Shown here: positions 1 through 18,514 of the stretch, in pieces
Layout of the letters: each line of letters starts with the position of its first letter
How positions within the stretch are numbered: position 1 is the stretch's first letter
Source: Candidatus Azambacteria bacterium RIFCSPHIGHO2_02_FULL_52_12
Lineage (GTDB): Bacteria > Patescibacteriota > Minisyncoccia > GWC2-36-17 > WO2-46-25
DNA length: 36,235 nt
NCBI GenBank assembly: GCA_001775835.1
Contig: MEYP01000006.1
Location: 16,486-52,720, forward strand
Direction of reading: 5' to 3'
Notes under the pieces: model-generated
The model's database searches: none
What the model saw: the letters and a program-made list of their open reading frames with translations, nothing else
What the model was told of the DNA's origin: nothing
Program-made: the position numbers and the translations under genes

Positions 1-1006
1 CGTCGTGTTCCGATCTTTCTTGCTCTGGTTCTTCCATCATGCGCTCGGCTTCTTTCGCCGCTTTGCGCGCTTGGACGGATGTGATAAAGGAGTCTCCGTA
101 TGAACCGCGCTCTGATTGAGTTCTTGCGTTCTCAAGCGCATGCTTTGCTTCTTCCAGTTTTTGTTCCGCGTTCGGCCGGCTTGCGCCTTCAGACTGCGCT
201 TTCTTAAGGGTCTGCTCCATCTCGCTAACCCTGTCTTGGACGGATCTTATTTTTTTGCGTGATTTTTCCTGGAACTCCTTGCGAACGGCTTTTTGCTCCG
301 TTAACAATGTCTCGCCCGTACCGGGAACTAGCGCGTCCTCTGTGGAGGTGCCTGCTAAAAGAGCGAGATTGGCGAATTCGTTCTGTGATTCCGCATGCTC
401 GTCAGCATCATCAAGGTATCGTTTAAGCGTATCGGCAAATGTCTTTTTCTGTGATTTTTCCGAGATCTCCTTGATGGTCTGCTGGTGCGCCGAGGTGGCT
501 CGGTCGATGCGCGTCGCGATCTCTTCGGTTTCCCGCGGATCTTCATCGAGCAGTTTTTGGCTTTCTTCCAGTTCAGTCTTATAGTTGATGAGCAAGGCGT
601 CTACGTTCATCTGTCGCGCCGATTCTTCCTGAACGATCTTTTCAAGCTCGTTCAAGCGCCGTGAGGCGAATTCCAAATGAAGCCCGCTTTTTTTTGCCGG
701 GCTTGCGCTTAATGCGACGCGTACCTGTTCGGTCCTAAGTTTCAACGGGTAGAGCGTATCGCCCGGCAAAGCATTCTGCGAAGCAAGCGTAACGCCGCCG
801 GTCGTCAGCACGACCGCAACGACCAACAATGCCGCGGCGCCTTTGTGCGCGAAGAAAAAGAACATCGCGCCAAATTCACGTCTTTGTTCAAGCGCCGGGT
901 ATGCCGCCATGTGCGACCGGAGCACAACCCGAAATTCCGCTTTGCGTTTTTCGCCGGCGCTCATGCGTCCAAGCCGTTGCAGTCTGTTTTTGATAGTGTT
1001 ACTCAT
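1..1006 (-). CDS. Membrane-anchored coiled-coil protein, putative anti-sigma partner (3' end outside window)
   Basis: This ORF is absent from the ORF track because it runs off the window edge. Hand translation of the minus strand from the ATG at 1006 gives MSNTIKNRLQRLGRMSAGEKRKAEF...GAMFFFFAHKGAAALLVVAVVLTTGG, which contains one TM helix. About 270 further codons of E/K/Q-rich sequence follow with no stop down to position 1. The ATG overlaps the sigma-factor stop (ATGAGTAA, 999-1006), which suggests translational coupling. The anti-sigma function is an inference from that position. Confidence 0.6.
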   Translation of the reverse strand, partial: MSNTIKNRLQRLGRMSAGEKRKAEFRVVLRSHMAAYPALEQRREFGAMFFFFAHKGAAALLVVAVVLTTGGVTLASQNALPGDTLYPLKLRTEQVRVALSASPAKKSGLHLEFASRRLNELEKIVQEESARQMNVDALLINYKTELEESQKLLDEDPRETEEIATRIDRATSAHQQTIKEISEKSQKKTFADTLKRYLDDADEHAESQNEFANLALLAGTSTEDALVPGTGETLLTEQKAVRKEFQEKSRKKIRSVQDRVSEMEQTLKKAQSEGASRPNAEQKLEEAKHALENARTQSERGSYGDSFITSVQARKAAKEAERMMEEPEQERSEHD

Positions 1007-3810: not shown

Positions 3811-3845
3811 TTCTATTTTCTATTTTCTAAATTCTAGCTTCTATG
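3811..3845 (-). repeat. Heptad array (TAGAAnn) x5 in the sufB-sufD spacer
   Basis: The plus strand reads ttctatt ttctatt ttctaaa ttctagc ttctatg. On the mRNA strand this follows the sufB stop directly: TAG-CATAGAA GCTAGAA TTTAGAA AATAGAA AATAGAA. Confidence 0.9.
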
Positions 3846-5243
3846 CTAACCGATCGCGTTCTCCATTTCCATTTCAATGAGACGGTTGAGCTCAAGAGCG
3901 TAGTCGGCGGGGAGTATTTTTGCCAGCGGCTCGAAAAAACCGGCAACGACTAAGGATGCCGCTTCCGTTTCGGAAAACCCGCGCGACTTAAGATAAAAAA
4001 GCTCCTTCTCGCTGATGCGGGACACCGTGGCTTCATGTTCAATCCTGGTATCCTGTTCTTCTATCTTCATGGTCGGATACGTGTCCGAGCGTGACTGCTT
4101 GTCCAGTATGAGGGCGTCGCACCGCACTTTTATCTTGGCGTTTTTCGCGCCTTTCACGACTTGCGCGAGCCCGCGATACGCGGTGCGCCCGCCGCCAAAC
4201 GCGACGGATTTTGAGACGATGTTGGAAGAAGTGTCGGATGCCATATGCACCACTTTCGCGCCCGCGTCCTGGCACTGCCCCTTGCCCGCCAGCGCCACGG
4301 ACAAGATATCCGCCCGCGCGCCCCGTCCGACCAAAAACACCGAAGGGTATTTCATGGTGATCTTCGAGCCCAGGTTGCCGTCTATCCATTCTACAAGCGC
4401 GTTTTCTTCCGCCCGCGCCCGCTTGGTCACCAGATTGTACACGTTGGCAGACCAGTTCTGGATGGTCGTGTAGCGCACCCGGGAGCCCTTCTTTGCGATT
4501 ATCTCCACCACGGCGGCGTGGAGCGCATCGGTGGTGTACACGGGCGCGGTGCACCCTTCAATGTAGTGCACATCGCTGCCCTCGTCGGCGATGATGAGCG
4601 TGCGCTCGAACTGCCCGATATTCTTGGTGTTGATGCGGAAATACGCCTGCAGGGGCATCGCGACCTTCACCCCCTTGGGCACGTAGATGAAACTGCCGCC
4701 CGACCAGCACGCGGAGTTGAGCGCCGCGAATTTGTTGTCGCCGATGGGCACCACCGTCCCGAAGTATTGCCGGAACAGGTCGGGATATTTCTTGAGGGCG
4801 GTGCCCGTGTCGGTGAAGATGATGCCCTGCTTCTCGAGATTTTTCTGGATGTTGTGGTATACCGTTTCGGAGTCGTATTGCGCGCCCACGCCCGCGAAGA
4901 ATTTCCGTTCGGCTTCGGGCACGCCCAGCTTGTCGAATGTTTTTTTGATGTCTTTGGGCACATCCTTCCATTCCCGGGTTTGCGCCCCTTCAGGCTTCGC
5001 GTAGTAGATGATGTTTCCAAAATCGATGGCGGACAGGTCGGGGCCCCACGCGGGCATTTTTTTTGCGTTGAATATCTCAAACGCGCGCACGCGGAAGTCG
5101 CGCATCCACTGCGGGTCGTTCTTCTCCGCCGAAATGCGCTCGACGATCTCGCGGGAAAGTCCGCGTTCGGTCTGATATGCGGGCTTCACGTCGCTGTGAA
5201 ATCCGTATTGGTATTTCGTGCTGGAGGTTGTATTACTGGGCAT
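3846..5243 (-). CDS. sufB: Fe-S cluster assembly protein SufB
   Basis: The 465-aa ORF is SufB-like along its whole length (YGFHSDVKP..., FIYVPKGVKV, ...HEATVSRISEKELFYLKSRGFSETEA). Confidence 0.95.
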   Translation of the reverse strand: MPSNTTSSTKYQYGFHSDVKPAYQTERGLSREIVERISAEKNDPQWMRDFRVRAFEIFNAKKMPAWGPDLSAIDFGNIIYYAKPEGAQTREWKDVPKDIKKTFDKLGVPEAERKFFAGVGAQYDSETVYHNIQKNLEKQGIIFTDTGTALKKYPDLFRQYFGTVVPIGDNKFAALNSACWSGGSFIYVPKGVKVAMPLQAYFRINTKNIGQFERTLIIADEGSDVHYIEGCTAPVYTTDALHAAVVEIIAKKGSRVRYTTIQNWSANVYNLVTKRARAEENALVEWIDGNLGSKITMKYPSVFLVGRGARADILSVALAGKGQCQDAGAKVVHMASDTSSNIVSKSVAFGGGRTAYRGLAQVVKGAKNAKIKVRCDALILDKQSRSDTYPTMKIEEQDTRIEHEATVSRISEKELFYLKSRGFSETEAASLVVAGFFEPLAKILPADYALELNRLIEMEMENAIG

Positions 5244-6526: not shown

Positions 6527-6535
6527 TATCCTTGC

Positions 6536-6564
6536 ACTGTAGCAGTAGAACGCGTAATTGTCAA
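6536..6564 (-). promoter_or_regulatory. Sigma-70-type promoter of the Rrf2-suf operon
   Basis: The minus strand reads TTGACA (6564-6559), a 17-bp spacer, then TACAGT (6541-6536). Confidence 0.5.
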
Positions 6565-8704: not shown

Positions 8705-9260
8705 GAAGCCATTTTACCGAAGCGACAAAGCCGACGATAAGCAGAACCCACACGACGAGCATGAGAAGCCCGCCGAACCATCCGGCGTGGCCGAAGCTGT
8801 ATGAAGGGCCATAGCCCATCATGCCCCACCCCCCGAAATGTCCGAATCCTCCGAACGAACCGCTGTGCATCATGGACATGAAATCACCGCTTCCCGCAGG
8901 ATATGCCGCGGTCATATCGCATCCGCTCATTTGTTTTCCCATCGCGGCATGCATCTCTTCTTCACCCTCTTTTCCCAGTCTTCGTTCTATCATTTCATTC
9001 ATGGCTTCGTGCGAGGAGCCCATCATCCGGCCCATGTAGTATTCTCCCAATGCCTCAAAATCTCCCTCGGACAGTTGAGCGCAGGTGATCTGCTTCGCCT
9101 GCAATTTTTCCCAGATTTCCTTGCCCTCCGCTTCTTCTTTTGCGGTATGGCCGTCCGTTTTTTCGCCATAGCCCATCATACCCATTTGCGCCGAACTTGG
9201 CGCGGCCGATACCGCGAAAACCCCCGCCAACAGCATTCCTAGAACGATGAAATATCTCAT
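8652..9260 (-). CDS. Met/His/Gly-rich exported, C-terminally anchored protein (putative metal-binding partner of the ATPase)
   Basis: The 202-aa ORF has a signal peptide (MRYFIVLGMLLAGVFAVSAAPSSA), M/H-rich stretches (QMGMMGYG, MMGSSHEAMNEM, FMSMMHSGSFGGFGHFGGWGMMGYG) and a C-terminal TM helix (LLMLVVWVLLIVGFV). The function is inferred. Confidence 0.6.
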   Translation of the reverse strand: MRYFIVLGMLLAGVFAVSAAPSSAQMGMMGYGEKTDGHTAKEEAEGKEIWEKLQAKQITCAQLSEGDFEALGEYYMGRMMGSSHEAMNEMIERRLGKEGEEEMHAAMGKQMSGCDMTAAYPAGSGDFMSMMHSGSFGGFGHFGGWGMMGYGPSYSFGHAGWFGGLLMLVVWVLLIVGFVASVKWLLAQTRSGDKKDDTHRQP

Positions 9261-9333
9261 AGTTTTCCGATTAATTGATTATAAAAAATATCCCCCTTCT
9301 AGTATACGCCCATTGACATATGATAGCAATGTA

Positions 9334-9463
9334 TTGACCCCTCACTTGGAAAGCGCTGCGCAAAGCGCAAACATGTTTTTTTAAAAAAAGAAGTATTGTT
9401 TTGCAAAACGGACTATGAAAGCATCAGCGTTGGTTGATTGCGCCTTCCAAGCGAGGGGTTGAC
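9334..9463 (+). repeat. 130-bp TTGA-flanked inverted-repeat element, copy A
   Basis: The structure is TTGA-CCCCTCACTTGGAAAG...CTTCCAAGCGAGGGG-TTGAC. The arms are 14 of 15 complementary. The right flank doubles as a -35 box. Confidence 0.85.
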
Positions 9464-9487
9464 TCGCTATTCGTCAAGTGCTATATT
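9459..9487 (+). promoter_or_regulatory. Sigma-70-type promoter with extended -10
   Basis: TTGACT (9459-9464), a 17-bp spacer, then TGc-TATATT (-10 at 9482-9487). Confidence 0.6.
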
Positions 9488-9558
9488 ACGGGGGTTGGCG
9501 AGGGATGATTCGTAGCTCGTTTACAACTGGTTTTCACTCAGGGAAAGGAGTGTGCGCC

Positions 9559-9717
9559 ATGCAATGTAACCGCTGCAAAGGTTTAATGGTTCGAGAGTGG
9601 GCTTCGGATTCAGAAGGAACCGCAGTTTGGATTGAATTGTGGGGCTGCATTTGTTGTGGAAATTATATAGACGAAAAAGTGATTTACAACAGAATGGATG
9701 TGAAGAATTTCAAATAG
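9559..9717 (+). CDS. Small zinc-ribbon protein (52 aa), hypothetical
   Basis: The start is the internal ATG of track ORF 9478..9717, preceded by the SD AAAGGAG (9544-9550). The product is MQCNRCKGLMV...WGCICCGNYIDE, with CxxC...CxxC. A strong terminator follows. Confidence 0.55.
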   Translation: MQCNRCKGLMVREWASDSEGTAVWIELWGCICCGNYIDEKVIYNRMDVKNFK

Positions 9718-9724
9718 TACCGAT

Positions 9725-9765
9725 AAAAGGGTCGTTTCGCTTTTTGAGCGAAACGACCCTTTTTG
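9725..9765 (+). terminator. Intrinsic terminator
   Basis: The stem is aaaagggtcgtttcgc / gcgaaacgaccctttt with loop tttttga. The T-run merges into the next -35 box. Confidence 0.75.
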
Positions 9766-9791
9766 ACATCTCACGTTTTTTATCGTAAGAA
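9763..9791 (+). promoter_or_regulatory. mnmA promoter
   Basis: TTGACA (9763-9768), a 17-bp spacer, then TAAGAA (9786-9791). The ATG is 9 nt downstream of the -10 box. Confidence 0.5.
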
Positions 9792-9800
9792 TAAAGCAGT

Positions 9801-10955
9801 ATGGAAGCGGCCGCAAAGAAAATTTTTGTAGCTATGTCGGGAGGCGTGGATAGCTCTGTTACTGCCGCTCTGCTTAAAGAGCAGGGGCGCGACGTAACAG
9901 GCATATTCATGAAGAACTGGTCTGACAGTGCGTTTTTGAAAGACACGACTATGTGCCCGTGGGTGGCGGACCAGGAAGATGCGCGCAAGGCGGCCGCGGT
10001 CATCGGCATTCCTTTGTATACGTTCGATTTTGAAAAAGAATATCGGGAAAAAGTCGTCGCGTATATGATAGCGGGATACAAGGCGGGGATTACGCCCAAC
10101 CCGGACGTGATGTGCAACAAGGAGATAAAGTTTGGACTGTTCTTACAAAAAGCGCTCGAGCTTGGCGCCGATTTTGTGGCGACCGGCCATTACGTCCGCC
10201 TTCGGCGGAATGACGAATTTCGAATTTCGAATTTCGAAATTGATTCAAAACTTAAAATTCAAAATTCAAAATTAGGTTGCCAGTTGTTACAAGCAAAAGA
10301 TCGAAATAAAGACCAATCTTATTTTTTGTGGACTCTTACGCAAGAACAGTTGAAATATTGCGTTTTTCCCATTGGAGAATATACCAAGCCGGAGGTGCGC
10401 GAGATGGCGCGGAAATACGGTTTGCATAACGCCCAGAAGAAAGACAGCCAGGGAGTGTGCTTCGTGGGCGACTTGGATGTGTTTGAATTTTTAAAGAGTC
10501 AAATCCCGACGCACAAGGGAAAGATCATGACCGCAAGCGGCAGGGAGGTCGGCGAGCACGAGGGTGTGGAATTTTACACTATCGGCCAGCGCCATGGCAT
10601 CGGTTCGCCTGGTGGCGGAACGGCGTATTATGTGGTTGGCAAGGATGCAAAGAAGAATATCTTGTATGTCGGCGAGGGCGCGGATGACAAAGAGCTCTAC
10701 GGCATGGCGCTTGAAGCCAGGGCAGCGCATTGGATTTCCGGCAACGAGCCAGAGTTGCCGTTACGCTGTGAAGCCAGAATACGGTATAGACAATCATTAC
10801 AGAAGTGTATTGTGAATTCTCTGTTTCATGTTTCACGTTTCATGTTTCACGTTGAGTTCGACGAGCCCCAGCGCGCTATCACGCCTGGCCAGTCTGTTGT
10901 TTTTTATGACGGGGATACGGTCCTTGGCGGTGCCGTAATCGTGCAAAAAGTTTGA
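9801..10955 (+). CDS. mnmA: tRNA 2-thiouridine(34) synthase MnmA
   Basis: The 384-aa ORF has the PP-loop (VAMSGGVDSSV), NPDVMCN, ATGHY, KDQSYFLW, DSQGVCF and the C-terminal AITPGQSVVFYDG. It contains two heptad-repeat tracts, listed separately. Confidence 0.93.
   Translation: MEAAAKKIFVAMSGGVDSSVTAALLKEQGRDVTGIFMKNWSDSAFLKDTTMCPWVADQEDARKAAAVIGIPLYTFDFEKEYREKVVAYMIAGYKAGITPNPDVMCNKEIKFGLFLQKALELGADFVATGHYVRLRRNDEFRISNFEIDSKLKIQNSKLGCQLLQAKDRNKDQSYFLWTLTQEQLKYCVFPIGEYTKPEVREMARKYGLHNAQKKDSQGVCFVGDLDVFEFLKSQIPTHKGKIMTASGREVGEHEGVEFYTIGQRHGIGSPGGGTAYYVVGKDAKKNILYVGEGADDKELYGMALEARAAHWISGNEPELPLRCEARIRYRQSLQKCIVNSLFHVSRFMFHVEFDEPQRAITPGQSVVFYDGDTVLGGAVIVQKV
10214..10276 (+). repeat. Nine 7-bp repeat units (63 bp, 21 codons) inside mnmA
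   Basis: The units read cgaattt x3, cgaaatt, gattcaa, aacttaa, aattcaa x2, aattagg. The tract is AT-rich compared with its flanks and encodes DEFRISNFEIDSKLKIQNSKL. Confidence 0.9.
10823..10853 (+). repeat. GTTTCAY heptad x4 inside mnmA
   Basis: The sequence gtttcat gtttcac gtttcat gtttcac gtt encodes FHVSRFMFHV. Confidence 0.9.
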
Positions 10956-11082
10956 CCCCATACTCAACAAGGATTGCCCCCTTGGCGCCAAGAGGTTTTT
11001 TTACTGTCAACAAGAAATAGCATAACAAGAATGTGCAAGACCAATTCATGAGGTAATTATCCTTGTTGAGTATGGGGTTGAC
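10952..11082 (+). repeat. 131-bp TTGA-flanked inverted-repeat element, copy C
   Basis: The structure is TTGA-CCCCATACTCAACAAGGAT...ATCCTTGTTGAGTATGGGG-TTGAC, a perfect 19-bp inverted repeat. The left TTGA contains the mnmA TGA stop. Internally there is a hairpin plus T7 (cccttggcgccaagagg-ttttttt) and arm-like copies at 11007-11016 and 11024-11032. Confidence 0.9.
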
Positions 11083-11105
11083 AAAGTATATAAAAAAAGT
11101 ATATT
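11078..11105 (+). promoter_or_regulatory. Promoter at the right end of element C
   Basis: TTGACA (11078-11083), a 16-bp spacer, then TATATT (11100-11105). Confidence 0.5.
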
Positions 11106-11159
11106 AGAGAACGGGTTGTTTTATGTTCATTTCATTTCTCACACAAGAGGAGGAGAATC

Positions 11160-11360
11160 GTGGAAACGATACCCTATGTGGTTTTAAAGCATGCTCATCT
11201 CATCGGAGATGAAGCATTTGTTTTGCGACGGTATCTGTTGTTCTTTCTTCCCGACTCGTTGCAGTATGTGGATGAAGAACAAGAGAAAAATCGTCAAAAA
11301 GCCCTTAATTGCAAGGAATGTTTCGAGGCGTTCGTCGAGGACTATAATCTTGGCGGTTAA
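11160..11360 (+). CDS. Hypothetical small protein (66 aa)
   Basis: A GTG start is preceded by a strong SD (GAGGAGGAG, 11147-11155) and followed by a strong terminator. I recognise no family. Confidence 0.5.
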   Translation: METIPYVVLKHAHLIGDEAFVLRRYLLFFLPDSLQYVDEEQEKNRQKALNCKECFEAFVEDYNLGG

Positions 11361-11385
11361 GCGGTTTTAAAGGGTATAACACAAC

Positions 11386-11420
11386 AGCGCCATGACGAAA
11401 TCTGTCGTGGCGCTTTTTTT
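11386..11420 (+). terminator. Intrinsic terminator
   Basis: The 11-bp stem is agcgccatgac / gtcgtggcgct with loop gaaatct, followed by T7. Confidence 0.8.
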
Positions 11421-11421
11421 A

Positions 11422-11450
11422 TTGCAATCATGGGAAAAATTTACTATGAT
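11422..11450 (+). promoter_or_regulatory. alaS promoter (leaderless geometry)
   Basis: TTGCAA (11422-11427), a 17-bp spacer, then TATGAT (11445-11450). The ATG at 11458 is 7 nt after the -10 box. Confidence 0.6.
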
Positions 11451-11457
11451 GGACGCT

Positions 11458-13404
11458 ATGACGACTAATGAAGTACGGCAGAAATTCCTTGAATTCTTCC
11501 GAGAAAAAGGGCATGCCGTCATTCCCTCGGCTCCGCTCGTGCCCGACGACAAAACGGTGCTGTTCGTGACGGCCGGCATGCAACCGCTGGTGCCGTATTT
11601 GATGGGGGAGAGAAAGCACCCGCAGGGCGCGCGGCTTGCCAACTCGCAGAAATGCCTTCGCACGGATGATATTTTAGAAGTGGGGGACAATCGCCACCTC
11701 ACATTCTTTGAAATGCTCGGCAACTGGTCGCTGGGGGACCCGTCCGAACCGGACGCCAGCCCGACAGGGTCATCCGCCCGGCCAGGCCATTCGGACGGGT
11801 TCCGGCGGGGTATCGGCCGGGCGGGCTATTTCAAAAAAGAGTCCATTGCGTGGAGTTTTGAGCTTTTGACGTCAAAAAAATGGTTCGGCATCGATCCCGA
11901 AAAACTGTATGTCACCGTGTTTGAAGGAGATGCGACAATGGGTATCGCGCGCGACGACGAATCTATCGGTTACTGGAAAGAAGCATTCAAAACCGCGGGC
12001 ATAGATGCGAGTTTGGAAAACGGGCGCATTTCCGCCTATCCCAAAAAGAAAAATTGGTGGGAACTTGCCGGGTCGGGACCATGCGGGCCGGATACGGAGA
12101 TTTTCTACGATATGGGAAAAGAACATGACCCGGTATTTGGCGAACAATGCCATGCGAACTGCGACTGCGGGCGGTTTGTGGAAATCTGGAACAATGTGTT
12201 CATGGAATACGAAAAAAAGGCGGACGGTCCGCCGGTTGGCGGAGGTGGATATTCGTATGTACCGCTCGCGCAGAAAAACGTGGATACCGGCATGGGTCTT
12301 GAGCGCATCACGATGGTTTTACAAGGCGTTGAAACGGTATTTGAGATAGATGTTTTTAAAAAAATCATCGGGAGCATAGAGACAAAAAAAGTCCCCTACG
12401 AGAAAGAAGCGCGAAGATATCGCATCATTGCTGATCATCTGCGCGCGGCGGTGTTTCTGATCTCTGACGGCGTTGCACCTTCGAATGTGGAGCGAGGATA
12501 TATTCTGCGCAGTCTTTTGCGGCGTGCAATAGCGCAGGCGAGGATTTTGAATTTGCCGTTGCGTGATTTTCCAGTGAAACCGATTGAAAGAACACGCGAG
12601 TACTATAAAGAAAATTACCGACTTTCCGCGCTGCCGGCGATTATTGATATTGTAAAAAAAGAATTTGACGCGTTTCTGACGGCATTTGAGAAAGGGAGAA
12701 AAGAGGTTTTACGCATTGTCGGGAAAATACCCGAGGGCGGCGTGATACCCGCCAGAGACGCGTTCAATCTTCATCAGACATACGGTTTTCGGATTGAGTT
12801 GATGATTGATCTGGCAAAAGATTCCGGGCATACCGTGGATGAAAAAGGGTTCTGGGAAGAATACAAAAAGCACCAGGAGATTTCCCGCGCGGGATCAGAG
12901 AAAAAATTCGGCGGGCATGGTTTAATGCTGCAGACCGGTGAGCTGAAAGCGGCTGATGAAGAAGAGTTGAAAAAAGTGACGCGCCTGCACACGGCGACGC
13001 ATCTTTTGCAGGCGGCTTTGCGCAGGGTTTTGGGCGACCACGTGCACCAGATGGGTTCGGACATCACGGCAGAACGCCTGCGGTTCGACTTTTCGCACCC
13101 GCAAAAAATGACGGATGAGGAAAAAAAGAAGGTGGAAGAGGTGGTGAATAAGGAAATCCAAAAAGGACACGCGATGACCCATAAGGAAATGCCGATTGAC
13201 GAAGCGGAAAAAACCGGCGCATTGATGTTTCAAAAGGAAAAATACGGGAAAACGGTGAAAGTATATTCGGCCGGAGATTTCTCCAAAGAGCTCTGCGGAG
13301 GACCGCATGTGGCGAACACGAAAGAAGTGGGAACATTCAAAATCCTCAAAGAAGAGGCATCTTCCGCCGGCGTTCGTCGCATCCGCGCAACAGTTGTTGA
13401 TTGA
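11458..13404 (+). CDS. alaS: Alanine--tRNA ligase, short form lacking the C-terminal C-Ala/DHHA1 region
   Basis: The start is moved to MTTNEVRQKFLEFFREKGH because track start 11392 lies inside the terminator stem. The ORF has FEMLGNWSLGD...YFKKE, the editing-domain motifs HTATHLLQAAL and CGGPHV, and ends at ...RRIRATVVD. It is 648 aa. Confidence 0.9.
   Translation: MTTNEVRQKFLEFFREKGHAVIPSAPLVPDDKTVLFVTAGMQPLVPYLMGERKHPQGARLANSQKCLRTDDILEVGDNRHLTFFEMLGNWSLGDPSEPDASPTGSSARPGHSDGFRRGIGRAGYFKKESIAWSFELLTSKKWFGIDPEKLYVTVFEGDATMGIARDDESIGYWKEAFKTAGIDASLENGRISAYPKKKNWWELAGSGPCGPDTEIFYDMGKEHDPVFGEQCHANCDCGRFVEIWNNVFMEYEKKADGPPVGGGGYSYVPLAQKNVDTGMGLERITMVLQGVETVFEIDVFKKIIGSIETKKVPYEKEARRYRIIADHLRAAVFLISDGVAPSNVERGYILRSLLRRAIAQARILNLPLRDFPVKPIERTREYYKENYRLSALPAIIDIVKKEFDAFLTAFEKGRKEVLRIVGKIPEGGVIPARDAFNLHQTYGFRIELMIDLAKDSGHTVDEKGFWEEYKKHQEISRAGSEKKFGGHGLMLQTGELKAADEEELKKVTRLHTATHLLQAALRRVLGDHVHQMGSDITAERLRFDFSHPQKMTDEEKKKVEEVVNKEIQKGHAMTHKEMPIDEAEKTGALMFQKEKYGKTVKVYSAGDFSKELCGGPHVANTKEVGTFKILKEEASSAGVRRIRATVVD
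11740..11826 (+). repeat. 87-bp GC-rich palindromic element translated in-frame within alaS
   Basis: It encodes PSEPDASPTGSSARPGHSDGFRRGIGRAG between the GD and YFK residues. It has interleaved perfect 10-bp inverted repeats at 11739-48 / 11790-99 and 11774-83 / 11815-24. Its core resembles the reverse complement of the 61-bp element at 14011 and 14728. Confidence 0.85.
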
Positions 13405-13426
13405 AGACGCTATAGTGTGGTATATT
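13397..13426 (+). promoter_or_regulatory. hicBA promoter (leaderless geometry)
   Basis: TTGATT (13397-13402), an 18-bp spacer, then TGg-TATATT (13421-13426). The ATG at 13433 is 6 nt after the -10 box. The -35 region overlaps the alaS stop. Confidence 0.55.
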
Positions 13427-13432
13427 TTATCT

Positions 13433-13651
13433 ATGAAACAGGAATTTACAGCGGTCTATAAAAAGAGCGGAAAGTGGTACGTGGGGTGGGTGGAAGAGGT
13501 TTCCGGCGTGAATACGCAGGGGAAAACGCTCAAGGAAACAAAGGAAAATCTCCGCGAGGCGCTTTCTTTGGTGCTTGAGACGAACCGGATGTTGAGCAGA
13601 ATAGACGGGCGTCGGGCGATACGCGAACCGATCAGCGTTTTTGCGCGATGA
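13433..13651 (+). CDS. hicB: HicB-like antitoxin (72 aa)
   Basis: The start is the internal ATG of track ORF 13307..13651. MKQEFTAVYKKSGKWYVGWVEEVSGVNTQGKTLKETKENLREALSL fits the HicB/UPF0150 N-terminal fold pattern. An ATGA overlap couples it to hicA. Confidence 0.7.
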   Translation: MKQEFTAVYKKSGKWYVGWVEEVSGVNTQGKTLKETKENLREALSLVLETNRMLSRIDGRRAIREPISVFAR

Positions 13652-13842
13652 AGCGGGGAGATCTGATTTCGCATCTTGTACGCGAAGGATGCGTATTCAT
13701 CAGGGAGGGCGCTCGCCATAGCGTCTTTTTTAATCCGTTTACCAGGCGGACCTCCACGGTACCGCGGCATACGGAAGTAAATGACTTTCTTGCGCGGAAA
13801 ATTTGCCGCGATTTGGGCGTTGATAATGTGCGGAAAAAGTAG
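13648..13842 (+). CDS. hicA: HicA-family mRNA interferase toxin (64 aa)
   Basis: MKRGDLISHLVREGCVFIREGARHSVFFNP...TVPRHTEVNDFLARKICRDLGV matches the HicA pattern (G-x-H ... VP-x-H). Confidence 0.8.
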   Translation: MKRGDLISHLVREGCVFIREGARHSVFFNPFTRRTSTVPRHTEVNDFLARKICRDLGVDNVRKK

Positions 13843-13863
13843 TTGCGATGGTGATTTAACATT

Positions 13864-15096
13864 ATGCCTTTCATTGAACGAAAAGAATTTCAAAAATATC
13901 AGGAAACGATCATGGTTGCCGTATACAGTGACAGGGTTTCCGCGTATGCGATAGGGAAAAATGCGGCCGGATACAACATTGTCGCCGGCGCGACCGAAGA
14001 ACAGGAAGAAGCCCGCCTGAACCCCGTCCGAACGGATGTTCATCCGGGCGGGGATCCAATGGTCGGGCAGGGAGAATTAAATACGGGAAAAATAAAACTT
14101 AACTGCCAGAAGGCGCTGCAGCGGCTCCCGCGCGAACACATGAAAAGCGGTATGCCCGTCGTCTTCGCGCTGGGGCCGGGCGCTTCGGAATGCGCTTTTG
14201 TATCGATCGATGCGCGGCGCGAACAGAAAGACGCGATCATTTCCGAAAGCGAAGTGAAGTCCATTATCGAGAGATCGTACGGCCTTAAGGCATCCGAAAG
14301 CGGCAAGGCATCCCTCAATGTTCCCGCGGGTTTTCTTGTGGACGGATTCTCGGTGCCTGACCCCGTCGGTTTGAACGGCCAGAATATCACCGTCAATCTG
14401 GTCAGCGTCAGCGCTTCCCGGGCGCTCGAAGAATCGTTTTCCGACATCGCGTCGTCGTACGGCTTGCGGTATGGCGGCATGGTCAATATATGCGGCATGC
14501 TTGCCGATGCCATGCCGTTATTCACGCAGGATGCCGATTGCGTGGCGATGCTCGTTTTCGAGCGGGAGATCATTCTGGCGCTCGTGCGCGGGAAAAAAAT
14601 ATCCGCCATTGGAAAAGCGGACGGCGGATATGGTATACTAGAACAAGAAGCGGCACGATCGTTTTCGGTAGGAATCGAGGAGGCGAAGAATATTTTGCGC
14701 GCGTTCGAGAAAAAACAGACGGATGCCGCCCGCCTGAACCCCGTCCGAACGGATGTTCATCCGGGCGGGGATCCAATGGTCGGGCAGGCCGTCGCGGAAA
14801 AGATAAACGAGCTGTCCGCGCGCGTCGTTTCCGACATCGCGCGGCGCATCGGATCGGCGCTTCCCAAGCTTGATTTTGAACATCTGATTCCCGCGACATT
14901 CCTGGTTGCGCAGTTCGGAAATCTTTCGCACCTGTCGCAGGCGTTGATCGACAACCCGACCTGGCTTGCCCAGGCGCCGGTCGCGAGAAACGCAGGGGTC
15001 GCGCGCATGAGCCCGCTCAAACAGAACATTCAGGACGACAAAAAAGTGCTCGCGGACGGCGATGCATACATACTAACCGCGCTTATGCGATCATGA
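13864..15096 (+). CDS. FtsA/PilM-like actin-fold protein (degenerate nucleotide-binding motifs)
   Basis: The 410-aa ORF has segments resembling FtsA (VNLVSVSASRALEESFSDIASSYGLRYGGMVNICGMLADA; GGYGILEQEAARSFSVGIEEAKNIL). The phosphate-binding DxGGG-type motifs are not evident. It contains two identical 61-bp inserts. Confidence 0.5.
   Translation: MPFIERKEFQKYQETIMVAVYSDRVSAYAIGKNAAGYNIVAGATEEQEEARLNPVRTDVHPGGDPMVGQGELNTGKIKLNCQKALQRLPREHMKSGMPVVFALGPGASECAFVSIDARREQKDAIISESEVKSIIERSYGLKASESGKASLNVPAGFLVDGFSVPDPVGLNGQNITVNLVSVSASRALEESFSDIASSYGLRYGGMVNICGMLADAMPLFTQDADCVAMLVFEREIILALVRGKKISAIGKADGGYGILEQEAARSFSVGIEEAKNILRAFEKKQTDAARLNPVRTDVHPGGDPMVGQAVAEKINELSARVVSDIARRIGSALPKLDFEHLIPATFLVAQFGNLSHLSQALIDNPTWLAQAPVARNAGVARMSPLKQNIQDDKKVLADGDAYILTALMRS
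14011..14071 (+). repeat. 61-bp GC-rich palindromic element, copy 1 (in-frame)
   Basis: The sequence is gcccgcctgaaccccgtccgaacggatgttcatccgggcggggatccaatggtcgggcagg. It encodes ARLNPVRTDVHPGGDPMVGQ and is identical to 14728-14788. Confidence 0.95.
14728..14788 (+). repeat. 61-bp GC-rich palindromic element, copy 2 (in-frame)
   Basis: It is a perfect copy of 14011-14071, lying 717 bp (239 codons) downstream in the same gene. The flanks are unrelated. Confidence 0.95.
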
Positions 15097-16814
15097 AAAA
15101 AATACTCTACGTACATCCCGACGAAACCATCGCCTATCTCATTGACCGGATGGAAAATACCGATTCGGATACGCTTTTTATCGTCGCGGACGCCAACGCC
15201 GCGCTCTTTATGGATTCGGTGAACCTGAAATTGCTCAAGCGCGAAGCGGACGGATTCCGCAAGCAATGCGTCATCGTTTCCCAAGCCCCGGCTGTTCTCG
15301 CCATGGCGCGCGAGGCCGGGTTTGACACATCGTCGGAAGATATCGCTCCTGAAGAGTCCGGGTACCCGCCCGTACCGAATGAGTACGTTCGGGCGGGCGG
15401 CGTGCAGCATGAAGTACCCAGTTCGACGGATTCGGCGGGCTCACTGCAGGCGGAATCGGAAGAAGAAGTGCCGGTGCATGTCCGGTCCAGCGCTCCCGAG
15501 AGCGGTCTTTCCATGGCTTCCGGGCGTTTTGTTTCGCATGACGCGCCACCCTCCGGCACAGAGGCCGATGAAGAGATGCATTATGAGAACAGCCCCGAAG
15601 AATCCGAAGAAGCGGGAGCGGGTGGTGCGCGCGACTATCGTGACGCCCGAAAAGGGGCGCCCGGCATGCCGCTCAACTGGAAATTCCTTGGCGCGACGCT
15701 CGCGGGGGTGCTTGTCGTCGCTGTCGCCGGTTTCTATCTTTTTTCCCCTAAGCTGTCCGTTTCCATCGTTCCCAAGAAAGAAACGCTGAATTTTGATTTT
15801 CAGGTGGTTGGCGACCTTGCGTTGTCGAGCGTTAATCTGACGAAAGCGCGCATCCCCGGGCAGGTCGTCACCATCGCGCAAGAGCAATCCGATTCGTTTC
15901 CCGCTACGGGAAAACAAGACAAAGAAACCAAGGCGGAAGGGGAGATCGTTATTTACAACGCGTTCGGCGCGGGCATCCAGACGCTGGTGAAAAATACCCG
16001 TTTCAAAGCGAAAGACGGCAAGTTGTTCCGCCTGGTGAGCGCGGTGACGGTTCCCGGCGCGAAGATGGAAGGAGGGAAAGTCGCCACGCCGGGCACGGTG
16101 AACGCGCGCGTTGTGGCAGACCAGCCGGGCGCGGCGTACAATATCGATCCGACTGATTTTTCAATACCCGGATTTCAGGATACTCCCAAGTTCCTCGGTT
16201 TTTACGGGAAATCAACCAAGCCCATGAGCGGAGGCGGTTCAAGCAACGCGCGGTTCGCCACTCGGGAAGATCTGGACAAAGCGAAGGCGGCGCTTTCCGA
16301 TGCTCTTGCCAAAAGCGCCCAAAGCCATGTCGCGTCGCAGATTCCCAAAGGGCTCAAGGCCGTTTCCGAGGCATTCGCACAGGAGGCGCCCCAGTTGACT
16401 CCCGGTTCGGTTGACGCGGACGGGATGTTCAAAGCGACGCTCAAAACGACCTATACCATTTTCGCTTTTTCCGAGAATGATATCATCGCGCTGATAGACC
16501 ATACGGTATCGGGAAGGATCTCGGAACGGCGCAAGGCCATCCCGGAGACGCGCGTTATTTCTTATGTCGATGAAGTCGTCAGTCAGGACAAAAAGTCGTT
16601 CTCGTTTACGGCAAAAATAAGCGAGCTGGTGCTTGGCATCATAGACCACAACGACATGCGGCTCCTGTTGGCGGGCAAAAACGAGTCGGAGATCAGGCAG
16701 ATACTGGGCGCCAATGAATCCATTGAGGGAGCGGAAATAACGTTTTGGCCGTTGTGGGCTTCGGCGGCTCCGGCAAACCCCGACATGATAAAGGTTTTTG
16801 TGGATGAGTCTTGA
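15093..16814 (+). CDS. Single-pass membrane protein with acidic linker and large extracytoplasmic domain, hypothetical
   Basis: The 573-aa ORF is coupled by an ATGA overlap to the FtsA-like gene. It has an N-terminal cytoplasmic domain, a low-complexity E/S/P-rich linker, one TM helix (LGATLAGVLVVAVAGFYLF) and about 350 aa outside. Confidence 0.75.
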   Translation: MKKILYVHPDETIAYLIDRMENTDSDTLFIVADANAALFMDSVNLKLLKREADGFRKQCVIVSQAPAVLAMAREAGFDTSSEDIAPEESGYPPVPNEYVRAGGVQHEVPSSTDSAGSLQAESEEEVPVHVRSSAPESGLSMASGRFVSHDAPPSGTEADEEMHYENSPEESEEAGAGGARDYRDARKGAPGMPLNWKFLGATLAGVLVVAVAGFYLFSPKLSVSIVPKKETLNFDFQVVGDLALSSVNLTKARIPGQVVTIAQEQSDSFPATGKQDKETKAEGEIVIYNAFGAGIQTLVKNTRFKAKDGKLFRLVSAVTVPGAKMEGGKVATPGTVNARVVADQPGAAYNIDPTDFSIPGFQDTPKFLGFYGKSTKPMSGGGSSNARFATREDLDKAKAALSDALAKSAQSHVASQIPKGLKAVSEAFAQEAPQLTPGSVDADGMFKATLKTTYTIFAFSENDIIALIDHTVSGRISERRKAIPETRVISYVDEVVSQDKKSFSFTAKISELVLGIIDHNDMRLLLAGKNESEIRQILGANESIEGAEITFWPLWASAAPANPDMIKVFVDES

Positions 16815-16940
16815 CCCCTCACTTGGAAAGGATATTTGATGGGAATATGCCGTAATACACTTAACGTTTTTGACTAACGTATTTTGGGAACTTGGAAGGC
16901 ATGTCGCTTTGCGACAATCCTTTCCAAGTGAGGGGTTGAC
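16811..16940 (+). repeat. 130-bp TTGA-flanked inverted-repeat element, copy B
   Basis: The structure is TTGA-CCCCTCACTTGGAAAGGAT...ATCCTTTCCAAGTGAGGGG-TTGAC, a perfect 19-bp inverted repeat. The left TTGA contains the TGA stop of the upstream gene. An internal third arm-like copy, ACTTGGAAGG, lies at 16890-16899. Confidence 0.9.
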
Positions 16941-16978
16941 TTCTTTTCTATAATTTGTTACAAAGGATAGGCTCGTAT

Positions 16979-17197
16979 ATGGTACAAGAAAACATTCGCC
17001 AAGAAGGCGTGGTCCAGGAGAATCTGCCCAATACCCTTTTTCGCGTCAAGTTTCCCGATGAGACGGTCATCCTCGCTCATCTTTCCGGCAGAATGCGGCT
17101 GCATTACATCAAAATTTTGCCCGGCGACAGGGTTATCGTGGAAATAACCCCCTACGACAAAACAAAAGGAAGGATAGTGCAACGACTCAAACAATAA
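16979..17197 (+). CDS. infA: Translation initiation factor IF-1
   Basis: The 72-aa product starts at the internal ATG at 16979 ([25 protein letters not shown]...GRIVQRLKQ). AAAGGA lies upstream. Confidence 0.93.
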
Positions 17198-17279
17198 AAA
17201 GAGCAGAAGCAGGAGACGACATTTCCGGAAAAACCGGGGATGTCGCAAAATTATCGTTGTCAAGTTACAATGTCCCGTC

Positions 17280-17393
17280 ATGAAAATCAGAGCATCCGTA
17301 AAAAAAATATGCGCGAAGTGCAAATCTGTGCGAAGGTTCGGAAGGATCTATGTGCTCTGCGCGAATCCAAAACATAAACAAAGACAGAAATAG
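17280..17393 (+). CDS. rpmJ: 50S ribosomal protein L36
   Basis: This ORF is too short for the ORF track. Hand translation gives [37 protein letters not shown] (37 aa). The stop TAG is the first unit of the heptad array. Confidence 0.9.
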
Positions 17394-17473
17394 AAACTAG
17401 AAATTAGAAAGTAGAATCTAGAACTAAGGAGTCCAAACTTCTATTTTCTAGATTCTAGCTTCTAGATTCCACA
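17391..17473 (+). repeat. Heptad palindrome: (TAGAAnn)x5, a spacer containing AAGGAG, then (TTCTAnn)x4-5
   Basis: The sequence is tagaaac tagaaat tagaaag tagaatc tagaact | aaggagtccaaac | ttctatt ttctaga ttctagc ttctaga ttccaca. For example, tagaatctagaa pairs perfectly with ttctagattcta. Confidence 0.9.
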
Positions 17474-17476
17474 ACT

Positions 17477-17863
17477 ATGCCCAGAATCGCCGGTATAAAC
17501 ATACCCGATAACAAACGAATAGAAATAGCGCTTGCCTATATTTACGGCATCGGCCCGACATTGGGGACGCACATCGTCACCCAGGTTGGCGTCGACCCGA
17601 ACAAGCGGGCCAACAAGCTGACCGCCGAAGAGCTCAACCGCATCAAAGAGTACATCGAAAAGCATTACAAGATAGAAGGGGATCTGAAGCGCGAGATTAT
17701 GCTGAACGTCAAACGGCTGAAAGACATCAAGGCGTATCGTGGCGTTCGGCACATGCGCGGGCTTCCCGTGCGGGGCCAGCGGACCAAAACCAATTCACGA
17801 ACGCGCCGTGGCAACACGAGAAAGACGGCGGGATCGGGAAGGAGATCGGTTGATAAGAAATAA
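17477..17863 (+). CDS. rpsM: 30S ribosomal protein S13
   Basis: The 128-aa ORF begins MPRIAGINIPDNKRIEIALAYIYGIGP and contains YRGVRHMRGLPVRGQRTKTN. Confidence 0.95.
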   Translation: MPRIAGINIPDNKRIEIALAYIYGIGPTLGTHIVTQVGVDPNKRANKLTAEELNRIKEYIEKHYKIEGDLKREIMLNVKRLKDIKAYRGVRHMRGLPVRGQRTKTNSRTRRGNTRKTAGSGRRSVDKK

Positions 17864-17871
17864 GGGCTTTC

Positions 17872-17994
17872 GTCCCCATCAGAATGCTTTTGCTTTGAGC
17901 GTTCTGATGGGGACTGAAAACCTTACCGAAGCACATAACCAATAGTTATGTGCTCGGTGCTCAATGTGAAAGTAAAATTTACTTCGCAGTGAGC
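17872..17994 (+). other. Three tandem stem-loops in the 154-nt rpsM-rpsK spacer (candidate cis-regulatory RNA or processing site)
   Basis: HP1 spans 17872-17914, with a 13-bp perfect stem gtccccatcagaa / ttctgatggggac. HP2 spans 17926-17957, with stems of 9 and 4 bp. HP3 spans 17959-17994 and is imperfect. Confidence 0.6.
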
Positions 17995-18017: not shown

Positions 18018-18473
18018 ATGGGAAAGAAGAAAATAACAACGCAGAACGAAGCGCAGATGTTGAAAGAAACAGGAGCCCTTGAAACGGCGTCTAAGAAAGT
18101 CGCGGCCGCGCCCGCCTCAAGCAAACGTTTCATAAAAAGCGGCAAAGCATACGTGCAGGCGACCTACAACAATACCATCGTATCGTTGACGGATGATGCG
18201 GGCAACGTGCTTGGCTGGGCGTCCGCGGGTTCCATGGGATTTAAAGGAGCGAAAAAATCGACGCCGTTCGCCGCGTCCAAAGTCGTTGAAGCGGTGGTGG
18301 AAAAGGGAAAGAAGGCCGGCATGCAGGATGTCGCGGTTTATGTGAAAGGCATCGGTTCAGGCAGAGAATCGGCCGTCCGGTCCCTCGCTACCCATCTTAA
18401 TCTGTCCAGCATAACGGACGTGACCCCCATCCCGCATAACGGATGCCGGCCGCCGAAAGTCAGGAGAGTATAA
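18018..18473 (+). CDS. rpsK: 30S ribosomal protein S11 (N-terminally extended)
   Basis: The 151-aa ORF contains [18 protein letters not shown] and ends [20 protein letters not shown]. Confidence 0.93.
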
Positions 18474-18514
18474 CAGAAATAGAAACTAGAATTTAGAAAA
18501 TAGAAACTAGAATA
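18473..18514 (+). repeat. Heptad array (TAGAAnn)x5-6 filling the rpsK-rpsD spacer
   Basis: The sequence is acagaaa tagaaac tagaatt tagaaaa tagaaac tagaatATG. The last unit overlaps the rpsD start, and there is no SD. Confidence 0.9.

Follow-up and report, generated by a model that had tools for sequence, protein, structure and literature searches.

A TTGA-flanked, hairpin-ended element behind mnmA: a probable mobile element from an apparently undescribed family of the Candidate Phyla Radiation

What separates the mnmA gene of Candidatus Azambacteria bacterium RIFCSPHIGHO2_02_FULL_52_12 from the promoter that follows it? In the 36,235-nt stretch of DNA that we analysed (contig MEYP01000006.1, positions 16,486 to 52,720, assembly GCA_001775835.1; hereafter the window), a 122-nt element, copy C, lies 3' of mnmA at 10956-11077 between two TTGA tetranucleotides, one of which holds the mnmA stop codon and the other of which opens a promoter-like site. 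An initial annotation had proposed that this element inserted with duplication of TTGA, that it carries a terminator inside and that its right flank provides a promoter. We consider it likely, with good confidence, that a mobile element inserted here as copy C and duplicated the TTGA in doing so. Probably, too, it is a near-neutral, non-autonomous member, akin to a miniature inverted-repeat transposable element (MITE), of a family specific to the Candidate Phyla Radiation (CPR/Patescibacteria), termed family E here, that is mobilised in trans via a hairpin or cruciform formed by its arms. Read directly from the sequence, the locus comprises the following features:

9801..10955, + strand: mnmA (MnmA by NCBIfam, E=6e-131)
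10952..10955, + strand: left TTGA, the first copy of the target duplication (4 nt), with the mnmA stop TGA at 10953-10955
10956..10974, + strand: left terminal arm of copy C, CCCCATACTCAACAAGGAT, perfect complement of 11059-11077
10975..11058, + strand: non-coding cargo of copy C, 84 nt, with an imperfect hairpin, T7 and two arm-like direct copies
11059..11077, + strand: right terminal arm of copy C, ATCCTTGTTGAGTATGGGG
11078..11081, + strand: right TTGA, the second duplication copy, opening the -35 hexamer TTGACA (11078-11083)
11078..11105, + strand: target-site promoter candidate for the 66-aa open reading frame (ORF), TTGACA, 16-nt spacer, -10 hexamer TATATT (11100-11105)
11160..11360, + strand: 66-aa ORF downstream of the predicted promoter, preceded by AGGAGG

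The 19-nt terminal arms are perfectly complementary (20 nt with the flanking A/T included), and a repeat finder returned arms complementary at 20/20 positions with 84 nt between them; each strand of the window has exactly one occurrence of the arm, and 100 shuffles of the window gave none. Direct reading confirmed the TTGA-flanked layout with the mnmA stop in the left tetranucleotide. The promoter proposed for the right flank is likewise present as a predicted site of the sigma-70 type (TTGACA, 16-18-nt spacer, TATAAT), which matches the consensus at 11/12 positions and is the top-ranked promoter-like site within 9000-17500 in a promoter scan, but it belongs to the target site and not to the element. 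With its terminal inverted repeats, its target duplication of fixed length and its short (<300 bp) non-coding body, which contains no ORF of note, copy C has the make-up of a generic MITE, and related copies recur within single genomes, both in the window and in the metagenome-assembled genome (MAG) MFSB01, which has four.

Deleting copy C together with one TTGA would recreate exactly the architecture of compact junctions, in which the -35 hexamer of a promoter-like site contains the TGA stop of the gene before it. That this arrangement exists at uninterrupted junctions, as had been noted before, is true of the sites at 13402 (alaS), 32564 (dehydrogenase) and 1602 on the minus strand (nifU), and these overlaps illustrate the tight packing of transcription units in the genome. 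In the mechanism that we propose, the element would have entered a TTGA in which the end of mnmA (T-TGA) coincided with the beginning of the following -35 box (TTGACA), and would have duplicated it, leaving a left copy that still stops mnmA and a right copy that still forms TTGACA-16-TATATT. Because the duplication keeps both stop codon and promoter, such an insertion would be selectively near-neutral in a compact genome; and since a TTGA within a -35 box is the commonest harmless TTGA, this would also be why copies of E pile up just upstream of promoters.

The window has four related elements, three long copies and one mini copy; besides copy C they are:

9338..9458, + strand: copy A, 121 nt, arms CCCCTCACTTGGAAAGCGC / GCGCCTTCCAAGCGAGGGG with two A.C mismatches
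9334-9337 and 9459-9462, + strand: TTGA flanks of copy A, right flank TTGACT-17-TATATT
16815..16935, + strand: copy B, 121 nt, arms CCCCTCACTTGGAAAGGAT, perfectly complementary
16811-16814 and 16936-16939, + strand: TTGA flanks of copy B, the left one holding the TGA stop of a 573-aa ORF
31482..31513, + strand: mini-element, 32 nt, CCCCGTTAGAGG-ttaaaaac-CCTCTAACGGGG, a perfect hairpin in a PQQ sugar-dehydrogenase gene
31478-31481 and 31514-31517, + strand: TTCA duplication around the mini-element, which with it lies in frame and adds 12 amino acids

The position of copy A is corrected here to an end at 9458, with the right TTGA at 9459-9462. Copies A, B and C are alike in size, in their CCCC..GGGG ends and in the TTGA on both sides; the arms of B and C differ at 6/19 positions and each pair is still perfectly complementary, and the cargo of copy B is inverted relative to those of A and C. 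A hairpin followed by a T-run reads in the direction of transcription in copies A and C and is missing from copy B, which contains an internal mini-hairpin. The terminator claimed for the interior of copy C does exist as a hairpin (10977-10995) with T7 behind it (10996-11002), but where an intrinsic terminator calls for an uninterrupted, G+C-rich stem this one is imperfect (an internal C.A mismatch), a terminator scan did not call it and it is not conserved in the family. Two stretches in the same interior resemble the arm of copy C itself (11007-11016 at 9/10 positions and 11024-11032 at 8/9), as opposed to at most 7/10 for the arms of copies A and B, which upholds their earlier assignment to its own arm and not to that of copy B; the best of these matches was equalled in 41/2000 shuffles. 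Copy B also holds a match to its own arm in its interior (23/2000 shuffles as good), and copy A has none. ARAGORN found no tRNA in copy C or anywhere else in the window, so the cargos here are not tRNAs, and copies A, B and C gave no Rfam match at the gathering threshold or at E<=10.

The mini-element allowed the insertion to be examined against homologous genes. Deleting its 32 nt and one TTCA (36 nt, in frame) restores ATG TTC ATG CCG. Whereas 30 dehydrogenase homologues read TRTIMF-MPYP, the window reads TIMF-TPLEVKNPLTGF-MPYP, and removal restores IMFMPYP; at the DNA level, the closest dehydrogenase relative (L171, 76% identity; loci outside the window carry L numbers) has ATGTTTATGCC at this site. 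Judged by these comparisons, the mini-element provides a precise empty site, and hence a proven duplication, for a sister of copy C in one and the same genome. Its arm type is that of the arms around a nuclease gene of locus L111, described below. The L171 gene has a 30-nt imperfect palindromic in-frame insertion of its own at ~10590-10625 (MFMP-VHKSLSVGR-PYPN), a few bases from the insertion point in the window, and this loop of the dehydrogenase appears to be a hot spot. Copies A, B and C were compared across 10 contigs from different samples, all from Candidatus Azambacteria MAGs of the Rifle aquifer (CPR/Patescibacteria), and the 10 strain contigs are identical at all three. In relatives with MnmA 70-74% identical, mnmA ends with TAA and alaS follows 56-67 nt further on, with neither the element nor the 66-aa ORF; these element-free junctions are no precise empty site, but they are consistent with insertion.

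Family E extends well beyond this genome. Its members have arms of ~19 bp with the core CCCCGCACTAAnTTT, beginning with CCCC and ending with GGGG, that enclose a variable cargo. A pattern combining flank and outer arm matched 27 loci in species-representative genomes, compared to about 2 expected by our own estimate; about 24 of these are convincing, and they lie in MAGs labelled as or resembling CPR bacteria (Moran-, Falkow-, Buchanan- and Kaiserbacteria, Parcubacteria, Saccharimonadales). Most of the species-representative loci have the core arm CCCCGCACTAA(C/T/A)TTT in common. When only the arms were sought, blind to the flanks, at least 120 metagenome loci were recovered and no match in viral contigs; the 121 metagenome matches listed are the basis of the tRNA and flank-unbiased counts below, and the true total may exceed them. 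In a set of 140 unique arm pairs, positions 1-11 hardly vary and positions 12-19 each show three to five types of Watson-Crick pair, with pairing falling to ~36% at position 20. The Watson-Crick fraction at the variable positions is 0.74, as opposed to 0.55 (maximum 0.57) with partners shuffled, and therefore it is the helix, and not sequence alone, that is maintained.

The flanks carry a duplication of defined size. Among the listed matches, 35 of 76 flank-unbiased copies (those whose cargo is neither a tRNA nor a nuclease gene) have a perfect 4-nt direct repeat, where ~0.3 would be expected by chance. The repeat sequences over the 145 unique elements collected were TTGA (44), TTCA (7), CAAG (2) and TGTG (2), and TTGA stands on both sides of 44/99 family members without tRNA or nuclease cargo. 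TTGA copies nearly always have a C immediately 3' of the right repeat and then an A or a T, and the right flank reads TTGAnn-N15-19-TAnnnT in 33/40 relatives of the TTGA class. A small conserved cargo hairpin, TGCGCC-AAA-GGCGCA, which itself covaries and is followed by A's in relatives, stands beside the left arm 6 times and beside the right arm 10 times; since it is found on either side, E inserts in either orientation in a non-palindromic target. The initial proposal of an insertion with TTGA duplication is thus supported by family-wide evidence as well as by the empty site of the sister element. A stop codon in the left TTGA was rejected as a rule of the family, being the end of an open frame of at least 60 codons in only 5/40 TTGA-class copies. 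Seven relatives gave no Rfam match at E<=0.1.

More complex arrangements occur as well. At L049, tandem E arrays (12491-12739 and 13194-13460) consist of two adjacent copies with common TGAA flanks and of four 67-nt repeats of left arm plus small hairpin with a single right arm at the end. A solo right-arm fragment (..TTAGTGCGGGG) lies directly left of the TTGA of a complete element at L011 (minus strand, ~6535-6551), L022 (243-254) and L124 (2645-2658), and because it adjoins the TTGA the direct repeat at these three loci is 13-16 nt and not 4 nt. The arm-like copies inside copy C fit nested or tandem insertions with partial duplications, comparable to the L049 arrays, the solo right arms and the mini-hairpin of copy B. 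E is apparently an undescribed, CPR-wide family with unusual relatives: in the literature, which we covered incompletely, neither the arms nor nested tRNAs nor CPR MITEs were found described, and an earlier description elsewhere is possible; the closest paper found was PMC11270868.

What might mobilise such elements is suggested by a longer form of E, ~290 nt in length (289 nt in L051), that carries a gene for an 84-aa GIY-YIG nuclease. Arm pairs 150-5000 nt apart were sought in ~1 Mb of CPR loci, and this form was the sole long unit; the scan also gave adjacent or tandem elements and two cases of 162-177 nt, and no larger arm-flanked gene in these loci at a spacing of up to 5000 nt. The protein belongs to Pfam PF01541 (48.7 bits against a cut-off of 22.6, E=9e-13) and has 284 homologues, most of those among the matches listed being exactly 84 aa long; it has a weak match to a family of group I intron endonucleases, and no solved structure matching it by sequence was found. 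The gene stands between core E arms at 5 distinct loci (L051, L163, L164, L165/L167, L168), with its ATG 5-10 nt past the left arm and its stop TAG within the right arm (e.g. ..AGCAAAAGTTAGTGCGGGG), and 3 of the 5 have TTGA..TTGAC flanks followed by a promoter-like -10 hexamer. The boundaries of the unit are discrete, as seen at L163 and L164 (both 1471-1763), where 293 nt are 100% identical from ACCCC to GGGGT and the flanks are unrelated; both loci are in one assembly and have equal coverage. L164 holds a second, diverged GIY-YIG gene (327-575, minus strand) that adjoins tRNA-like sequence. Diverged homologues (42-46% identity) at L111 and L026 are enclosed by different arms, again inverted CCCC..GGGG, a pairing that points to co-evolution of protein and arms.

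In our proposal, the arms would act as a hairpin or cruciform substrate for mobilisation, and the activity would be supplied in trans by the 84-aa nuclease of the ~290-nt form with identical arms; the arms would be kept as a helix because this activity recognises a hairpin or cruciform. The ~290-nt form, having the same core arms and the GIY-YIG gene, is a candidate autonomous partner, but its interior has no homology to that of the short copies, and the idea that short copies are simple deletion derivatives of it was rejected for that reason. The mobilising activity is probably, but not demonstrably, the nuclease encoded by E; that the protein does mobilise E we judge as apt to be right as wrong. 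No nuclease form with the arm variant of the window was found.

Several observations weigh against the proposed insertion and its mobilisation in trans. There is no GIY-YIG gene in the 36-kb window, blastn comparison of short-copy interiors with nuclease-bearing copies gave chance 12-15-mers only, the nuclease could be just another cargo, and we know of no prokaryotic transposon with a GIY-YIG catalytic domain alone. The window arms and the core arm of the family disagree at many positions (CCCCATACTCAACAAGG vs CCCCGCACTAACTTTGC), and because of this difference the membership of the window copies rests on architecture and on bridging variants (e.g. L033). An empty site, which the initial annotation had put forward as a check, exists precisely for the sister mini-element but not for copy C itself: the data examined, in which the strains are all identical, contain no exact empty-site homologue, and the nearest relatives are too distant to decide. 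Among the listed matches with duplicates removed, finally, a direct repeat flanks 1/42 copies embedded in tRNA genes, and the one-sided 4-nt tail of these copies is unexplained by simple cut-and-paste with target duplication.

These tRNA-embedded copies are a large class. In 44 of the 121 listed metagenome matches the arms enclose a complete tRNA gene, as identified by ARAGORN, and the flanks of such copies, none of which (0 of the 44 listed) has TTGA on its sides, consist of fragments of a second tRNA gene of the same strand. Copies of this kind, and others in rRNA operons, include:

L069 5560-5805: tRNA-bearing E unit within a tRNA gene of the same anticodon, D or anticodon loop
L130 915-1161: the same
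L082 8490-8633: the same
L079 2493-2640: the same
L054 140-268: the same
L060 993-1100: the same
L070 1027-1200: the same
L088 2034-2145: E copy inside a 16S rRNA gene, about model position 218
L144 ~343-467: E copy in a tRNA-16S leader
L155 ~5064-5190: E copy in a 23S-5S spacer

The tail of the tRNA-embedded copies is TTTA or CTTG at the 5' side, or CAAG or CAGG at the 3' side, and removing E plus these 4 nt rebuilds a canonical cloverleaf. At L130, taking TTTA plus a first E unit out of the D loop and a second E unit plus CAGG out from between positions 33 and 34 leaves a perfect 84-nt tRNA-Leu(CAA); hosts were also rebuilt at L069, L066, L132, L085/L141, L159, L070 and L122, and parsed by eye at L054 (Glu-CTC), L060 (Ile-GAT) and L079/L082 (Pro-CGG). 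Automatic rebuilding succeeded for 11 of the 121 listed matches tried and mostly failed because many hosts carry further insertions of other types, and the remaining matches do not count as negatives; some host tRNAs hold two to four insertions, cargo-less mini-hairpins among them. Inner and host tRNA have the same anticodon in all resolved cases, with one apparent and uncertain exception (L064), and their identity is 55-71% in four cases. At L130, the whole body of inner and host tRNA is identical and the acceptor stems are different.

The nested tRNA genes raise the possibility that E is an intervening sequence at the RNA level, whose arm helix marks it for excision by an unknown endonuclease and ligase or for cleavage by RNase III, and with which mobility of the DNA would be compatible. 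E would then be a hairpin-bounded cassette that is mobile as DNA and is also excised from RNA as a protein-dependent intervening sequence, a dual nature that we regard as tentative; applied to copy C, for which this account is possible but rather doubtful, it would mean that transcripts reading through from mnmA have the element cut out or cleaved, setting the mnmA 3' end. That so many arm pairs enclose a whole tRNA inside another tRNA gene speaks for it, as does the finding that the hosts fold correctly only with E and 4 nt removed (L130, L069, L070, L085, L122, L132 and L159; by eye L054, L060, L079 and L082). The stems of the rebuilt hosts L069 and L130 are fully paired, L130 and L132 have a common acceptor stem despite diverged bodies, a copy lies within the 16S gene of L088, arm covariation fits an RNA helix, and the ~19-bp stem comes near the size of helices that RNase III cuts. 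RNase III leaves fragments, however, which would be intolerable in the anticodon or D loop of a tRNA, and a simple RNase III model for the tRNA-embedded copies was rejected on geometry. A bulge-helix-bulge intron, which has two 3-nt bulges on either side of a 4-bp exon-intron helix at its splice sites, was rejected as well, since the tails TTTA, CTTG, CAAG and CAGG are unpaired with the opposite exon and no such motif is seen at the junctions (by eye: L054, L060, L069, L082), and so were group I and group II introns, as E is too short (cores of >200 or >400 nt), its cargo is unconserved and there is neither a ribozyme-sized conserved core nor an Rfam match. Matching inner and host anticodons, the uncertain L064 aside, are predicted by gene replacement and not required by splicing; host L057 has anticodon-stem mismatches, as in a decaying pseudogene; and the mini-element, an in-frame coding insertion (36 nt with its duplication), suggests translation and not splicing.

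It is unlikely that copy C is a selected cis-regulatory insulator, in which the internal hairpin and T7 terminate mnmA and the element supplies or strengthens the downstream promoter. The orientation of hairpin and T-run along transcription in copies A and C would suit such a role, and so would the GGGG arm end directly against a strong -35 box in the three window copies and most relatives. Yet hairpin and T-run are missing from copy B and most relatives, where a small hairpin with A's after it stands on either side; the unit does not include the promoter hexamers, and the sequence beyond TTGAC is unrelated between copies; the same element also occurs in coding, tRNA and rRNA genes; so few TTGA-class copies (the 5/40 given above) follow an open frame ending at that TGA; and relatives manage the mnmA junction without the element. 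The interior hairpin and T7 of copy C may stop some read-through, and the family data give no sign of selection for it; because hairpin and T-run are unconserved and the cargo lies in either orientation, the terminator is at most incidental, and copy C would have no regulatory role. Slightly less probable still is mobilisation by a Y1 (HUH) transposase of the IS200/IS605 or RAYT (REP-associated tyrosine transposase) type, with E a palindrome-associated element that moves as single-stranded DNA, inserts 3' of a tetranucleotide and carries a 4-nt end of its own. This would account for conservation of the hairpin rather than of the arm sequence and for the one-sided tail of the tRNA-embedded copies, and a Y1_Tnp gene adjoins mnmA in the relative L041; but cargo in both orientations relative to the non-palindromic TTGA is not what a strand-specific mechanism predicts, E has a single long terminal helix and not two subterminal hairpins, the protein found consistently between the arms is GIY-YIG and not Y1, and the 4 nt before tailed copies are not constant. 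An IS200/IS605-type element proper (strand-specific, without duplication, with Y1) was rejected, given insertion in both orientations, the proven duplication of the sister element and the linked GIY-YIG gene.

The probable mobile element that we favour can be compared to several known systems, and by analogy E resembles Correia elements, Rickettsia palindromic elements and intervening sequences of rRNA in behaviour without belonging to any of them. Correia elements (CREE) of Neisseria are 100-155 bp long and non-coding, with terminal inverted repeats, a short target duplication and no transposase in the short copies; they are intergenic, often near promoters, and their transcripts fold into a long hairpin. 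E is likewise made of small non-coding inverted-repeat elements with a short target duplication near promoters, but its CCCC arms are not the 26-bp Correia arm, its duplication is TTGA and not TA, its host is not Neisseria, its arms vary yet stay paired, and it has nuclease-carrying and tRNA-carrying forms, of which we know none among Correia elements. Like Rickettsia palindromic elements (RPE), E places small palindromes in frame in protein genes and in RNA genes of reduced genomes, and the 36-nt in-frame dehydrogenase insertion of the window behaves like an RPE; RPEs differ in being 100-150 bp long and of unrelated sequence, with no clear target duplication or associated enzyme described, as opposed to the defined 4-nt duplication and linked GIY-YIG gene of E. 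With the intervening sequences of 23S rRNA that RNase III removes, some of which have a small ORF, E has in common short inverted-repeat insertions in stable-RNA genes that form a long helix; those sequences, however, are confined to rRNA helices and leave fragmented rRNA, whereas E is also found in tRNA loops, coding DNA and promoters, and has target duplications. Repetitive extragenic palindromes and the mosaic elements built from them (REP/BIME-RAYT), as well as IS200/IS605 palindromes, are also hairpins defined by structure and served in trans by a small single-domain nuclease of a related unit, as is proposed for E, but REP/BIME have a Y1 HUH enzyme, a length of 20-40 nt, a conserved tetranucleotide and no target duplication.

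Two bodies of published work concern RNA genes. Archaeal tRNA introns at non-canonical positions, which have a bulge-helix-bulge and for which transposition in Thermoproteales is cited in PMC10714607, also occur several per tRNA, in the D loop and the anticodon loop, and similar sequences recur at separate sites; E has no bulge-helix-bulge, its hosts are bacterial and it may contain a second tRNA gene. Tsurumaki et al. (2024, PMC11270868) describe GIY-YIG ORFs in CPR rRNA genes whose insertions explicitly belong to neither group I nor group II introns and, instead of homing to a single site, are scattered; many short (<200 bp) insertions there are uncharacterised (PMC11270868, and Brown et al. 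2015 as cited in it). The organisms and the protein family are the same as for E, one copy of which lies in a 16S gene (L088); a search of the text of PMC11270868 gave 0 hits for inverted repeats, palindromes, target duplications, tRNA genes and copies between genes.

The window and its relatives contain further repeats of other kinds. Directly 3' of rpsM, at 17861-17925, a 39-nt hairpin (CCCCATCAGAATGCT..AGCGTTCTGATGGGG) lies within a longer imperfect palindrome; the start of its arm resembles copy C (CCCCAT..), and it has neither TTGA flanks nor a T-run. Two 68-nt repeats, 96% identical, stand 717 nt (239 codons) apart in the same phase of a 410-aa ORF (14004-14071 and 14721-14788), each containing a 32-nt CCCC..GGGG hairpin (CCCCGTCCGAACGGATGTTCATCCGGGCGGGG); weak, sub-threshold Rfam 'mraW' matches coincide with the repeats. 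Intergenic arrays of a 7-nt unit (TAGAAAN / TTCTANN), direct and inverted, occur at 3811-3844, 17370-17476 and 18473-18512; they adjoin suf genes and also lie upstream of rpsM and of the S4 gene. A 45-nt repeat with the palindrome AATCGTACACAA..TTGTGTACGATT (30154-30198 and 30793-30837) flanks a PaaX-like regulator gene (30219-30776) and looks like an operator pair. In the relative L041, a 222-aa Y1 transposase-like gene (PF01797, 2958-3626) lies directly before mnmA, and a different inverted-repeat element of ~190 nt follows mnmA at 4780-4990.

For the copy C locus itself the meaning is modest: a harmless insertion would explain the odd layout of stop codon, hairpin and promoter. For the family it is wider. 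The nested tRNAs of matching anticodon reflect either an unrecognised, protein-based splicing of bacterial tRNA or a selfish cassette that destroys a tRNA gene while supplying its replacement, and is tolerated only in the cognate gene for that reason. If removal at the RNA level were true, CPR tRNA genes would be interrupted by up to three or four E units, a nested second tRNA would yield two tRNAs per transcript, an unknown stem-base endonuclease and ligase, possibly with the E-encoded GIY-YIG protein, would make cuts offset by 4 nt, and copy C would be the intergenic form of a bacterial intron that is neither a ribozyme nor of the bulge-helix-bulge type. To our knowledge, E would be the first prokaryotic transposon-like element built on GIY-YIG, and at ~290 bp with an 84-aa single-domain nuclease it is, as far as we know, a candidate for the smallest self-contained mobile element. 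Copies lie in a 16S gene and in rRNA-operon spacers, and some of the short uncharacterised insertions of CPR rRNA genes may be E units. Without masking of E, finders of tRNA and rRNA genes will overlook or mis-call genes in these genomes. E shows how mobile DNA survives in 1-Mb genomes, by way of a 4-nt target that is common to stop codons and -35 boxes.

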